Source: a virus
Virus record (IMG/VR): IMGVR_UViG_3300028840_003497
Span: 64,001 to 128,000 of that record
Reading direction: 5' to 3' (one strand)
Length of the DNA stretch: 64,000 nucleotides
Shown: in pieces, positions 26,591-33,225 of the stretch
Position numbering within the stretch: position 1 is the first letter of the stretch
How the letters are laid out: each line of letters starts with the position of its first letter
Made by a program: the position numbers and the translations under genes
The notes under the pieces: model-generated
Told to the model about the DNA's origin: nothing
The model's input: the letters and a program-made list of their open reading frames with translations, nothing else
Databases searched by the model: none

Positions 26591-27574
26591 TCAGACCTTT
26601 ACACAAACCGACAAGTATGGCGCTGTCTTTGCCGCTTCGGACAAGACCATCTGGCCTGCCATAGCAGTCGAGCCTGGCGACCCGACCGTCAAAAACTTGT
26701 AGCCCTGCATCTGATCGTCGACGGTTCCGAGCAAGAACTTATCCTCGCGCAACTTTCCGACCAGCCGTTTGGTCCTGTCCTCGGCCACGCGCATCGACGC
26801 CTGCAACGCCGCACGAATACCGTCAAGGCTCTTTTCTTCGATCTCCAAAGGCCCCCTACCCGGCTGCGACTCTCCGGCGTACCGAATCGCAAACGATCCG
26901 TAGCACACTCGAACCAGCGGGTTCCACAGGGCCTTCCAGAATTCGACCGTAGGAGCCATCTCGACACCAACAAGCTTCCCGTTGACCAGAATTACCGCAC
27001 CGATCTGATTAGGCACCAGTTCAAACTCAGCAACGAACTCGTCAAGCTGCTTTGAATAATTATTCAGAAACAGGACAAGGTTCGAGGATCCGTGTGAGAG
27101 ACCATACCCATGGATAAACTCACCTATGGCACCCCACAGCTTGTTGTACTGCTTCTGCTTCCGCATGGCGAGAGCACTCGCACGCAACTGCGCCGGAAGA
27201 ATGAGCATATCGTGATCACCGTGAGAGATCAGACCTCCCTGGCTCTGCTGGATACACATCGCTGTGTCGATTCGCTTGGACGAGTTCCCATCCACAAATC
27301 CACCACTCCCCAGCGCGTGATCCTGCGCGGCCTGCTTAACAACCCAACCAGCCCCTGTCGGGATGATCGTCGGATTCTCACCAGGATGACGCAAATCTAC
27401 GGTACCATAATCGGATGTTCCGACACTTATTCCGCTGGGAGGATCGAAACTATCGTCCTGTACTCCACCCTCGTCAACCAGCGGAATCACCTCCATGTTT
27501 CCTACGCTCTGAGAACGCCCATGTCCGACTCCGAACAGGATGTCTTCCATCGATACGCTTTGACGTGTCGTCAT
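26591..27574 (-). CDS. ARPP/DUF6569-like protein, translationally coupled to the Ro-like gene
   Basis: NMEVIPL, AQDHAL, CIQQSQGG, Q..LW..I, QIGAVILVNGKLVGVE patterns (family recalled, not searched). Confidence 0.6.
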   Translation of the reverse strand: MTTRQSVSMEDILFGVGHGRSQSVGNMEVIPLVDEGGVQDDSFDPPSGISVGTSDYGTVDLRHPGENPTIIPTGAGWVVKQAAQDHALGSGGFVDGNSSKRIDTAMCIQQSQGGLISHGDHDMLILPAQLRASALAMRKQKQYNKLWGAIGEFIHGYGLSHGSSNLVLFLNNYSKQLDEFVAEFELVPNQIGAVILVNGKLVGVEMAPTVEFWKALWNPLVRVCYGSFAIRYAGESQPGRGPLEIEEKSLDGIRAALQASMRVAEDRTKRLVGKLREDKFLLGTVDDQMQGYKFLTVGSPGSTAMAGQMVLSEAAKTAPYLSVCVKV

Positions 27575-29175
27575 GACTCACCTCCAATCAGGGCTAGACT
27601 CTCGATGGTCGAGCCCTTCAAAGCATTCCTGACCAGGGTGTTAATGCCTGTCTCTGGATCCGTCTCCAACAGCCCGCGCAACATAGTCGTTGCGAGCGCC
27701 GCCGGGGTCCTCACCGGCATCGTAGTTGCACCCTCGATCTTATCACATAATTGCCGCACTGCGCCTCCCTCGGCAGCGAACACCGGGTTCATATGAAACA
27801 CTGGTGTCTTGATCCCGACACCACGAGCCGCCACCAGAACATCCTGGAAGCGCCCTGCAGGCGCGTTCTCGTACCCGTCCGACAGGACGTAAACCACCTC
27901 GGGCTCTCGCCCCAGAACGGCCAGGAGACCCTCAGCAAGCGAAGTGTCTCCTTGCGGCCTAACGATCCGATGATCCTCTCCAAGAACCCCTCCGCAGTAC
28001 ACAACCTCGCACTGAGACGCCGTCTTCTCCAGCATATCCCGCAGCGCCAGAGTGGCAGCCAACGGACGCAGATGCTGAGTCCTGTCCCCAGCCATAGATG
28101 CCGAACCGTCAACCACAATACCTACTCGATCATATTTGACCGGCAGAGCAGCCGCAGCAGCCTCCGCCTTCGTATCCAACGCATCGAACACCTTCTTGTC
28201 CGCTCCGTTTTCGAAAGCATATATGTATAAATCCACCGGATCGTACCGGGTGGGATCCATCTTAACTTCGACACCAGCAGCCTTGGCCCGCTTCTGAACC
28301 GTCCTACGCTCACCAGTTGTCATCGTGCCAGACGCAGCCTTCACCTTCAGAATATCCTCCGGCTTCACGCCCGGGTGGTACATGCTCCGAATACCCTCCA
28401 ACACCTCGGTCGGCAACTTCTCACCAGCCTTTATATCTATCTTCGCGTCCACGAATGCCTGGAACAACCGGATTGAAAGATCGACCCGCTTCCCGCTCAG
28501 AAAGGCCAAACACTCAACTACATACGGTTCCTTGTTCAATCCACGAAACTTGAACACGTGATCCTTGAAAATCGCTTTTTCCTTCGCCGTCCAGCGACGC
28601 CGATCCTTCTGAGCAATCGAACCGATGATACTGAACCGACGCTGCCCCCACGCATGCGCGAGTGCCCGTGCCATTTTGCCCCGGTACTTGAGCGTCCAAA
28701 GATCGAGCCGCTTCGCACCAATCAGCGAGGACAGAATAAGCTTCCGCGTCCTGGCATTGTTCGCCTTCGTGACGCCAAATTCATCTCCCTGTCCACGAAA
28801 CGCATCGAACAAACGAAACATCCTCGGTGCCGGAAGGTGATCGACCAAATGGACTAGTACTTCCCTCTCCAACTTCGGATTCAGAAAAACATCCGCATCT
28901 GGAGTACGCGGATTCGAAAGCAGCCTCCCAATTCCAATCTGACGGGCGTGGTCGGCCACCCCTGGCAGCAACAACATCGCCAAGTAAATGTCCCGGCTCA
29001 TCACGAACAACTCGCCGTGGACCGCCATCTCGGCAGCCTTCTGTTCTTCTTTCGTGTTGTAATGGGTCGCCCGGCCAAACGAAGTAGTCGCCGTGTCCAG
29101 AAAATTACACACTTTCTGGCTCGCCTCGACCGGCTGAATTTCATTCCCGCTTTTCCACAATGTGACGCTATTCAT
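27571..29175 (-). CDS. divergent Ro60/TROVE-like helical domain + vWA protein
   Basis: Basic helical N-terminal region; MIDAS VVDGSASM, GDTS, LSDGYEN; adjacent Y-like RNAs. Confidence 0.65.
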   Translation of the reverse strand: MNSVTLWKSGNEIQPVEASQKVCNFLDTATTSFGRATHYNTKEEQKAAEMAVHGELFVMSRDIYLAMLLLPGVADHARQIGIGRLLSNPRTPDADVFLNPKLEREVLVHLVDHLPAPRMFRLFDAFRGQGDEFGVTKANNARTRKLILSSLIGAKRLDLWTLKYRGKMARALAHAWGQRRFSIIGSIAQKDRRRWTAKEKAIFKDHVFKFRGLNKEPYVVECLAFLSGKRVDLSIRLFQAFVDAKIDIKAGEKLPTEVLEGIRSMYHPGVKPEDILKVKAASGTMTTGERRTVQKRAKAAGVEVKMDPTRYDPVDLYIYAFENGADKKVFDALDTKAEAAAAALPVKYDRVGIVVDGSASMAGDRTQHLRPLAATLALRDMLEKTASQCEVVYCGGVLGEDHRIVRPQGDTSLAEGLLAVLGREPEVVYVLSDGYENAPAGRFQDVLVAARGVGIKTPVFHMNPVFAAEGGAVRQLCDKIEGATTMPVRTPAALATTMLRGLLETDPETGINTLVRNALKGSTIESLALIGGES

Positions 29176-29226
29176 AACGCACCTCCAGCTCTGAAACTGT
29201 CATCAGATGTTGTGGGGATTGATAAA

Positions 29227-29290
29227 TCCGAGGGAGCGTGGAAGTCGATCTATGTTTTAATGTAACTGAAACGACTTCTCAGTCCTCGAA
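29227..29290 (-). ncRNA. Y-RNA-like element B (handle with minimal loop)
   Basis: TTCGAG/CTCGGA and GAAGTCG/CGACTTC stems; shares GAGGACT and TTCAG with elements A and C. Confidence 0.7.
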
Positions 29291-29308
29291 CGTTTAATCA
29301 GAAAAAAA

Positions 29309-29436
29309 GCGCCGAGAGAGTGGGTGAGGCATTGTGGTTGACAAAACAAGATTTGAACTTGCTACTGTCGGATTTAATGTCCGATGCTCTACCAAATGAG
29401 CTATTCGCCTGAAATGTCTCTCTAGTCCTCAGCGCC
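29309..29436 (-). ncRNA. Y-RNA-like element A enclosing a complete tRNA mimic
   Basis: GCGCTGAG/CTCGGCGC closing stem, internal cloverleaf ending ACCA, own promoter, T7 tail. Confidence 0.8.
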
Positions 29437-29441
29437 TGGGG

Positions 29442-29470
29442 AATCTAACTCCGCCCACAGCATTTGTCAA
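29442..29470 (-). promoter_or_regulatory. sigma70-type promoter for element A / Ro-like operon
   Basis: TTGACA-17-TAGATT; +1 falls at the RNA 5' end. Confidence 0.75.
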
Positions 29471-29521
29471 CATGTTTTTTTGTTTTTTCTCCTAATCAAC
29501 TGAGCGCACGCTCTCCGCTCA

Positions 29522-32118: not shown

Positions 32119-32167
32119 ATGCCGACGGGCCTTCCACCCGCCTCGTCCGCTCAAAAACGGATCTCCC

Positions 32168-32316
32168 GGTCCTATTTTGGGTGACCGAGCCGAATATCCC
32201 CCATACCTCTTGTGGCTGAACCTCTCGGTCCGCCAGCCATGGGACGCGGCATGGTCACGCTACCCCAGAGCTAATCAACGCCTCCACCAGTACGAGTTTA
32301 AGGTCATCCCAGGACC
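32168..32316 (-). ncRNA. unclassified structured RNA (~150 nt)
   Basis: GGTCCT-GGGATGACC...GGTCACCC-AGGACC terminal helix with two internal hairpins; lies between tmRNA and tRNA-Met. Confidence 0.55.
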
Positions 32317-32318
32317 AT

Positions 32319-32693
32319 TGGAGATGCCCGGGATCGAACCGGGGTCCATTGAAGCTTCATATGCGAATCGTCACGTGCATAGTCTGCCTTCGTTCAACCG
32401 GGGACTTCCAGCAGACGAGTCATCCCAAGCTTACCCCGCTTTTGTTGTTCTCAGGAGGCCGCGAGGTGCCTCCACTGAGTTTGTCCGTGTAATTATGCCC
32501 GCCTAGCTACTCAGACTCCTCACTAGGTGGACACCCATCAAGCAGCCTTGGCGACTGGAGTCACTTTGGCCTTCGGGAAGGGAATTACATTATTGGTAAT
32601 TCATTTTTGAAAATCCTTTTTAACCCGCCGAACTTCCAAGGCGGGACACGCATCACACACTCCGTTCATCAATGTCGAAACCATATCATCCCC
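32319..32693 (-). ncRNA. ssrA: tmRNA
   Basis: 5' GGGGATGATATGGTTTCGAC; 3' GGAC-CCCGG-TTCGATC-CCGGG-CATCTCCA (G3:U70); tag ORF TNNVIPFPKAKVTPVAKAA-TGA. Confidence 0.93.
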
Positions 32694-32708
32694 TAAATCA
32701 AAAAAAAT

Positions 32709-32851
32709 GCGCCGAGTGAATTTGCAAGAGACGATGCACGACGCTCTACCGTTGAGCCAATCCCCCGTAAATTGGGGGATCCAGGATTCGAACCTGGAAC
32801 CTTCGGATTATCATTCCAAAATGCTGAAGTCTCTCTCTAGTTCTCAGCGCC
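32709..32851 (-). ncRNA. Y-RNA-like element C (YrlA-like) enclosing a circularly permuted tRNA
   Basis: Same handle as A; order anticodon arm, T arm, loop-closed acceptor stem, D arm; T-run tail; upstream TTGACA at 32883-32888. Confidence 0.85.
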
Positions 32852-32856
32852 AAGAG

Positions 32857-33225
32857 TTATACTGCCATTCTCACCTCGCGTTTGTCAACATCTTTTGTTC
32901 TTTTATCCTTCATATAGGCACTGGCCTCATTAATCCAGGCCGACACCTCGTCGTCTGTCGCTCCGAACCTACGGGCATGAGCCTCGACCTTGGAAAGCCT
33001 CGGAGGGTTCGCCGTGTGCGGCTCCATGGCCGCGTAAGACACTCCACGCAGGAGTCCATAGGCCAGCAAGTTCTCACGGGCAGCTTGCCGCACCACCGTC
33101 TTCCGATGATGGTTGAGATTCCACTTCGCCTTGCCGCTGACCTTCGCGGCCTCTTCTCGGATTGTTCTCGCCTCGTCAGCGAGGTTTTTGATCTTTATTT
33201 TTAGATGAATCAGTCGTTCGTTCAT
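32857..33225 (-). CDS. conserved-looking hypothetical phage protein
   Basis: AGGAGG RBS; LKIKIKNLADEAR.IR...HRKTVVR..AR...LAYGLLRG. Confidence 0.7.
   Translation of the reverse strand: MNERLIHLKIKIKNLADEARTIREEAAKVSGKAKWNLNHHRKTVVRQAARENLLAYGLLRGVSYAAMEPHTANPPRLSKVEAHARRFGATDDEVSAWINEASAYMKDKRTKDVDKREVRMAV

Follow-up and report, generated by a model that had tools for sequence, protein, structure and literature searches.

A phage locus with a diverged Ro60-like protein, an ARPP partner and handle-bearing tRNA-mimic RNAs points to an undescribed branch of Ro60/Y-RNA machines

The 64,000-nucleotide stretch of DNA analysed here, called the window, spans bases 64001-128000 of the complete 176,267-bp phage record IMGVR_UViG_3300028840_003497 of IMG/VR, which has direct terminal repeats at the record ends. 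Positions refer to the window unless another locus is named. Its minus strand carries a module composed of a gene for a putative diverged Ro60-like protein (the Ro-like gene), a gene for an ARPP-family protein and three small RNAs, A, B and C, whose ends form a common structure termed the handle. The Ro-like protein of 534 amino acids (27571..29175, minus strand) is predicted from an AlphaFold model, Foldseek and the aligner VIA to combine a helical TROVE-type domain with a vWA domain that has a MIDAS motif (metal ion-dependent adhesion site). The ARPP-family protein of 327 amino acids (26591..27574, minus strand) matches Pfam PF20208 with 93.9 bits at a cut-off of 27.

RNA A (29309..29436, minus strand) was delineated by sequence, fold and the covariance model R1 described below. 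Its handle, made of the stem P1, a GACUAGA loop, the stem P2 and a UUUCAG junction, surrounds a complete tRNA cloverleaf. RNA B (29227..29291, minus strand; R1 53 bits, E 1e-10) combines the handle with a short AU-rich apical loop of 18 nucleotides (nt) and would be YrlB-like in role. RNA C (32709..32851, minus strand), delineated by fold, Rfam YrlA and R1, consists of the handle and a third stem, P3, around a circularly permuted tRNA. The original prediction, made from the sequence before this analysis, had named three minus-strand elements with a common handle, carrying a whole cloverleaf, a short AU-rich loop and a permuted tRNA; the elements are present where it had placed them, and all three cargoes were confirmed. 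P1 reads GCGCUGAG/CUCGGCGC in A and C and UUCGAGG/CCUCGGA in B. The 5' loop is GACUAGA in A, AACUAGA in C and ACUGA in B, while P2 is formed by GAGACAU/AUGCCUC in A (with one A.C mismatch), GAGAGAC/GUCUCUU in C and GAAGUCG/CGACUUC in B. A and B have UUUCAG at the junction, C has CUUCAG. Fold energy z-scores amount to -2.65, -2.49 and -3.46 for A, B and C, respectively.

The tRNA-mimic cargo of RNA A (29338..29410, minus strand) scores 52 bits on the Rfam tRNA family RF00005 (gathering score 29) and is given the anticodon UUA by ARAGORN. It has A33 in place of U33, an A1.A72 mismatch, a G3.U70 pair and an encoded CCA. The fold of C runs from P3 through an anticodon-like arm (GAU, loop AUGAUAA), a T arm and a loop-closed acceptor to a D arm. 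T arm, acceptor and D arm follow the order of YrlA, where the stem towards the Ro site takes the place of the anticodon stem; in C a full anticodon arm is retained in addition, and other loci break elsewhere. C resembles the Rfam YrlA family (RF02553) with 32.7 bits (E 2e-4), under the gathering score of 69, and A and B have no match. In five other loci with C-type RNAs YrlA was not matched at E <= 0.01, and Rfam holds no family for the handle.

A sigma-70-like promoter of RNA A, TTGACA-17-TAGATT, is located at 29442..29470 (minus strand; 10/12 matches in a consensus scan), with the start of the RNA about 6 nt downstream of the -10 hexamer. A run of seven U follows the 3' strand of P1 in RNA A (29302..29308, minus strand) and a run of eight U follows RNA C (32700..32707, minus strand), as had been predicted for both. 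Sigma70 starts had been predicted for both RNAs as well; the one for A was recovered, but that for C holds only loosely, as its TTGACA and TATAAC hexamers are 21 nt apart and were not called by the promoter scan.

A tmRNA gene (32316-32693, minus strand; Rfam 96 bits), for which ARAGORN reports an unusual tag peptide, begins 16 nt past RNA C. In a related locus, L002, an orthologue of C at 2194-2335 again stands just before a tmRNA gene, the order of the two being kept. A separate observation concerns the octamer ACAUUAAA, which A has in its anticodon loop and B in its apical loop (29227-29436, minus strand). This sharing of 8 nt is peculiar to the window: 8 nt were reached by no cross-locus comparison, and no rule emerged in nine other loci. 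A general rule by which B loops would repeat the anticodon loop of their A-type neighbour was rejected, the shared stretch averaging 4.6 nt within loci and 3.9 nt across loci.

At a distance of 150-600 nt upstream of the Ro-like gene, the related loci encode a tRNA-like RNA whose anticodon is odd or varied. The flanks of these tRNA-like genes fold into the same handle, which ordinary tRNAs of the neighbouring arrays lack. First, loose handle descriptors had a high background, and the signal split from shuffles only at a score of at least 16. At this score, 36 gene-strand matches were obtained in 25 related loci, 32 of them at most 2.6 kb upstream of the gene, compared to one match on the opposite strand and two in shuffles. 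Across the whole 176-kb phage, A, B and C alone reached a score of 16 on their strand.

The covariance model R1 was built from 17 B-type RNAs only, a type that occurs in at least 17 related loci. With filters off, its best three matches in the 64-kb window were B (53 bits), A (14.5 bits) and C (14.1 bits), all over the full model length. The default filters returned B alone; A and C were missed because of their inserts of 75-90 nt and emerged with filters off at E ~0.4. Applied to 396 kb comprising the window and the viral loci, R1 produced 41 matches at E <= 1, of which 40 were on the gene strand, and it recovered A- and C-type RNAs, on which it had not been trained, at E values from 4e-5 to 6e-3. 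In a second, independent set, 39 genome loci totalling 317 kb, every one of the 44 matches shared the strand of the gene and was no more than ~1.1 kb upstream of it. Over both independent collections, 84/85 matches are on the gene strand.

Within the R1 alignment, which is fitted to the model and hence favours pairing, 82.6% of the cells are paired in comparison to 58.6 +/- 1.5% in shuffles, none of 500 shuffles reaching the observed value. The covariation score is 0.718 versus 0.267 when shuffled and at most 0.295 with partners slid, and these slid-partner controls argue that the covariation signal is real. Both P1 and P2 covary; P2 is 92% paired, with both-sided changes at all 8 pairs. GRACU shows little or no variation, and neither does the U-CAG of the junction. 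The 5' and 3' ends of the RNAs make a conserved, covarying handle composed of P1, a GRACU/AUUHC-type internal loop, P2 and a UWCAG junction, and its linkage to the gene was found in two independent collections.

The cargoes on this handle are interchangeable: the complete cloverleaf of a tRNA in A, a short loop in B and a tRNA in circular permutation in C. The number of tandem handle RNAs per locus, with their differing cargoes, runs from one to five or more. B-type cargoes are simple loops, and A-type cargoes are whole tRNAs with their ends joined to P2. C-type cargoes are permuted tRNAs with a closed acceptor, the acceptor loop often starting with ACCA. The C-type break lies before the anticodon arm in the window and in L002, L013 and L026, and before the T arm in L015-L019, L023 and L027. 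A fourth wiring was found at L023:4922-5050, L023:5739-5875, L027:5715-5853 and L027:4421-4566. Here, the ends of the tRNA-like RNAs form a normal 7-bp acceptor stem with 3' ACCA. An inside-out handle, in which a P1 capped by a small loop is followed by GACU, P2 and UWCAG or UUUAG, makes up an extra arm between position 8 and the D arm.

The anticodons of the enclosed tRNAs change much faster than the RNAs that carry them. Column identity is 96% among nine A-type RNAs that come from different genera of Pirellulaceae; their handle is fully invariant, and they have the anticodons CUU (5), UAG (2), UUU and AUU. Pairwise identity of these RNAs is 93%, compared to 81% (DNA) for the adjacent Ro-like gene. 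Anticodons were compared over all loci in pairs whose tRNA bodies are at least 85% identical. A different anticodon was seen in 24/32 pairs of handle-enclosed mimics and in 4/199 pairs of ordinary tRNAs from these loci. This corresponds to 0.49 changes per anticodon base versus 0.049 in the body for the mimics, and to 0.007 versus 0.060 for the ordinary tRNAs. Clusters with mixed anticodons make up 3/4 of those formed by mimics and 2/56 of those formed by ordinary tRNAs (Fisher exact by hand, p ~0.001), and in one cluster four RNAs with bodies 94-100% identical have four different anticodons. Several mimics show A33 or C33, 6-nt anticodon loops or A34. Since the body remains constant while the anticodon switches, synthetase identity cannot be kept. 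Given an anticodon that evolves about tenfold faster than the rest of the RNA next to stable ordinary tRNAs, together with A33 or C33, 6-nt loops and A34, the mimics are most likely not decoders.

The Ro-like protein belongs to a family of ~530-residue proteins with 555 clusters (50% identity, E <= 0.001), which ranges over phages, Myxococcota, Planctomycetota, Actinomycetota and others. Searches of the 534-residue protein against Pfam (E <= 0.01), PHROGs, NCBIfam and PDB sequences (phmmer) gave no match; RelE, the only hit that phmmer returned from the PDB, was dismissed as chance (E 0.13). An AlphaFold model computed with 43 homologues as input reached a predicted local distance difference test (pLDDT) score of 85. 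When this model was searched with Foldseek, all of the top 12 hits were Ro60, Rsr or TROVE structures, matched over the full length with E values down to 8e-7 and a template modelling (TM) score of ~0.5. VIA, a second and independent aligner, gave Z 18.1 to Xenopus Ro (1yvp_A) over 415 residues, covering model residues 20-502, Z 16.2 to Ro60 of the Thermus phage phiLo and Z 12.6 to Deinococcus Rsr; vWA-only chains reached a Z of at most 10.9. The language-model (embedding) neighbours of the protein are mostly TROVE clusters. The MIDAS residues D356, S358, S360, T411 and D433 (DxSxS ... T ... D) are invariant across the 43 homologues, and the DxSxSM stretch of the family lines up with the canonical Ro60 vWA domain in hhalign. 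The 534-residue protein is thus Ro60-like in its predicted fold and domain order, and by no sequence test. The divergent Ro protein that had been proposed is upheld in the same sense, by fold (Foldseek, VIA) and not by sequence.

The stop codon of the Ro-like gene and the start codon of the ARPP gene overlap in an ATGA at 27571-27574, indicative of translational coupling. An ARPP homologue directly follows the Ro-like gene in all 30 viral loci, down to 25% protein identity, and in 36/43 loci from bacterial and archaeal assemblies, where the exceptions are contig ends and a distant clade of 25-28%. The coupling to an ARPP-like gene that the original prediction had described was therefore confirmed and extends well beyond this phage. 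Q22, Q84, H86 and C107 of ARPP are invariant in 30 homologues, and its model has a pLDDT of 93.7. ARPP has been described as a probable enzyme with conserved Cys and Gln (Iyer et al. 2022, PMC9503650), an account with which the invariant residues agree. Comparison with solved structures, which had been suggested for both proteins with Ro60 in mind, succeeded for the Ro-like protein (Z 18.1) but yielded no neighbour for ARPP. No ARG or rhodanese genes turned up in Pfam scans of 24 module-flanking open reading frames of the window, a scan that was not a systematic search. ARPP is an obligate, translationally coupled partner of the Ro-like protein with invariant Cys, His and Gln.

A gene for the RNA ligase RtcB, a possible facultative accessory, is located ~4 kb downstream of the module (21489..22850, minus strand; Pfam PF01139, 194 bits). 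RtcB is encoded in 3/10 other module-bearing phage genomes checked and was rejected as a core partner, so that RtcB repair would be an optional addition. The link to rtcB raised by the original prediction, present in this phage, appears to be facultative.

Module carriers extend from phages to cellular genomes. tRNA arrays house or adjoin the module in Minicystis rosea, Pirellulaceae, other genomes and several phages, with up to 37 tRNAs in 9.5 kb. Among GenBank phages, a homologue of the Ro-like protein was found in one uncultured 462-kb record and in no cultured phage. Cultured bacteria with the module are Minicystis rosea, Stieleria, Novipirellula and Yinghuangia. The M. rosea chromosome additionally has a canonical TROVE/Ro60 gene (L076:1378-3075; Pfam TROVE 148 bits, vWA_Ro60 217 bits) ~4 kb upstream of the diverged gene (L034:4001-5521), both within one tRNA-array region. 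Canonical TROVE and diverged Ro-like genes also seem to be combined on a further contig, of 64,428 bp. A TROVE search of the whole phage analysed here found no canonical gene.

In the window, the module region is part of a minus-strand block that also contains intein-bearing RecA, helicase and DnaB genes, the RtcB gene, three tRNAs and the tmRNA. The intein/homing-endonuclease domains reside in RecA (24304-26499), a ResIII-type helicase (36638-40531) and DnaB (41601-44204), all on the minus strand. The gene immediately upstream of RNA A (29522-30736, minus strand; 404 amino acids) matches nothing but phrog_6077 (unknown function). As L002 and L003, the two closest relatives, are the only ones to retain it, it does not belong to the conserved module. 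A 207-nt tRNA-like element (35014-35220, minus strand) consists of an acceptor stem, a D arm and a T arm around a long insert; as a candidate handle RNA it was rejected, being without a handle and no more stable in its fold than shuffles (z -0.04). A 16-nt palindrome-like motif, GCGAACTTGAGTTCGC, recurs together with a CTCAAG variant throughout the phage genome, on both strands and at many sites, for example at 1798-1825 (plus strand) and 47276-47303 (minus strand), and may be a regulatory or operator site.

We consider it highly probable that the module is a diverged Ro60/Y-RNA-type ribonucleoprotein, whose function would be that of an anticodon-directed bait, sensor or tether. By analogy with the binding of the Y-RNA stem by Ro60, which takes up Y RNA on its outer surface and RNA 3' ends in its central cavity, the Ro-like ring would bind the handle. 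The cargo would then be the working end, a tRNA-shaped module on display whose specificity is set by its anticodon arm. A fast anticodon arm on an otherwise frozen RNA suggests recognition by a reader of the anticodon loop. The mimic could accordingly serve as bait, sensor or tether for such readers, be they anticodon nucleases, other tRNA-directed toxins or enzymes, and would thereby couple them to the Ro-like ring and to ARPP chemistry. The purpose may be to protect or police the tRNA pools that are carried by phages and tRNA-array islands. Fast anticodon turnover likewise favours the bait or decoy idea voiced in the original prediction.

Several observations weigh against this reading. The kinship to Ro60 depends on the predicted fold (TM ~0.5) and on embeddings, because TROVE sequence homology (PF05731) was not found in the Ro-like protein by Pfam at E <= 0.01. 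When the family profile was aligned by hhalign to a canonical TROVE profile of 23 sequences, the vWA part alone aligned, with a probability of 9.5%, and the same was seen with a single canonical TROVE protein. GNCGAAN0-1G, the conserved motif of the Ro-binding module in bacterial Y RNAs, is absent from A, B and C; the original prediction had noted that the handle lacks the canonical GUCCGA/UUGAC Ro site. The ARPP model has no solved structural neighbour, with a best Z of 4.0 and no Foldseek match at E <= 0.001. The promoter of C appears weak and non-canonical, owing to the spacing of its hexamers. RtcB is absent from 7/10 other module-bearing phage genomes, at least three of which are complete. 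Finally, the anticodon contrast is drawn from only four independent clusters of mimics.

Among the alternatives, an RNA-decay machine similar to RYPER survives best, although we regard it as unlikely. On the model of Deinococcus and Salmonella, the Y-like RNAs would in this case link the Ro-like ring with an exoribonuclease of the host, for example PNPase. Structured RNAs, tRNAs among them, could then be degraded or trimmed by the phage or tRNA island, and the nuclease would dock on the tRNA-shaped module, which would not be a bait. The architecture of the module matches known Ro/Y-RNA systems. Moreover, phiLo Ro60 and its Yrl RNAs form a complex with host PNPase in vitro (PMC12135203), and bacterial Y RNAs tether Rsr to PNPase (PMC4201824). 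However, such a machine leaves unexplained both the anticodon-focused change between near-identical RNAs and the obligate ARPP partner.

A second alternative takes the A-type RNAs to be ordinary tRNA precursors, in which leader and trailer pair to stabilise the RNA or to order its processing, working tRNAs are set free by RNase P and 3' trimming, and the protein genes are mere neighbours. The 52-bit tRNA score and encoded CCA of cargo A, the U33 and 7-nt loops of many A-type cargoes and the location of loci in tRNA arrays speak for it. Yet the same handle is found on non-tRNA loops and on permuted tRNAs with closed acceptors, which could not be released as tRNAs, and is missing from ordinary array tRNAs. 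In addition, the anticodon switches between amino-acid families on a constant body, which is incompatible with synthetase identity, A33 or C33, 6-nt loops and weak acceptor stems occur, and the linkage of handle and gene stands in two collections. Precursors of this kind fit the data poorly and are very improbable. The same poor fit makes cis-acting leaders (attenuators or processing sites) of the helical-vWA/ARPP operon, with no Ro-like RNA-binding role, the least credible explanation of all: the position of A and B in the 5' region directly upstream of the gene and the missing TROVE sequence match would suit it, but A has its own promoter and U-run, C bears the same handle 3.5 kb away beside the tmRNA gene, up to five or more tandem handle RNAs with different cargoes occur per locus, and the full-length Ro60 match of the protein beats all vWA-only hits.

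We therefore rank the putative bait, sensor or tether role ahead of decay, precursor and leader explanations. A bolder form of it, put forward tentatively and as one that may well not hold, would be a programmable particle for anticodon display. Here, the Ro-type ring and ARPP would hold a bait whose anticodon arm has evolved to match the toxin, nuclease or tRNA to be trapped, sensed or repaired. If true, anticodon display would establish phage counter-defence of a new class, would also guard the tRNA islands of cells and would give the tRNA mimicry of Y RNAs a concrete purpose.

The fast anticodon change of the tRNA look-alikes points to a branch of Ro60/Y-RNA machines that is undescribed and widespread. 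This branch addresses the role of Y RNAs in bacteria and phages and the reason for their mimicry of tRNAs. It renders the mimicry testable, as an anticodon swap should alter what the particle binds or protects against, and with carriers in culture the module is open to bench study. A related question is why tRNA arrays are found in phages and mobile islands, and the branch has a bearing on it as well.

Conflict-driven change of anticodon loops has a precedent in phage tRNAs whose anticodon loops escape host anticodon nucleases, the phages concerned having tRNA sets of their own. These are working tRNAs in which the anticodon is kept, whereas in the mimics the triplet itself switches on a constant body held by the handle. 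The ARPP protein shares PF20208 and the invariant Cys and Gln with ARPP of the ARG-centred NAD/ADP-ribose conflict systems (PMC9503650). The partners named there are ARG systems, HIRAN, WYL and a deacetylase, and neither a Ro-like/vWA protein nor small RNAs are among them. We found no paper that reports the module or links ARPP, a Ro-like protein and tRNA arrays.

With the Rsr-Yrn1-PNPase complex of Deinococcus radiodurans (RYPER), in which the Y RNA acts as a tether or gate, the module has in common a Ro ring (structural match Z 12.6) and a Y RNA, while RNA motifs and partner gene differ. Closer is the Thermus phage phiLo with its Ro60 and Yrl1/Yrl2 (PDB 9KOP, 9L5Y; PMC12135203), which likewise has a phage-encoded Ro60 ring, the second-best structural match (Z 16.2), and Y-like RNAs upstream of the gene. 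In contrast to the protein described here, phiLo Ro60 is recognisable as TROVE, and its RNAs have the CGAA motif. An ARPP partner, whole-tRNA cargo and anticodon variation are not reported for phiLo.

Bacterial Rsr (Ro60) with YrlA and YrlB is known from the Salmonella rsr-yrlBA-rtcBA operon, M. smegmatis and mycobacteriophages (Chen et al. 2014, PMC4201824; RF02553). Just as in these systems, two or more small RNAs are encoded immediately upstream of a gene for a Ro-type ring, pairing of the RNA ends creates a stem in which an internal loop is conserved, and one RNA is tRNA-like, with T arm, loop-closed acceptor and D arm, next to a second, short hairpin. As in M. smegmatis YrlA, which is cut by RNase P, some acceptor loops read ACCA. 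Unlike Rsr, the protein is not detected by the TROVE hidden Markov model, and the handle carries GRACU...UWCAG instead of GNCGAAN0-1G. RNA C retains an anticodon arm besides the stem, in which it differs from YrlA, and A-type RNAs enclose a complete unpermuted tRNA. ARPP is obligate, rtcB appears to be facultative, and the Rfam YrlA model misses the family save for the one sub-threshold match of C. By analogy, the module would work like Rsr with YrlA/YrlB and like phiLo Ro60 with its Yrl RNAs, C being the YrlA-like member. New with respect to both are the handle, the obligate ARPP partner, the whole-tRNA and inside-out cargoes and the turnover of anticodons.

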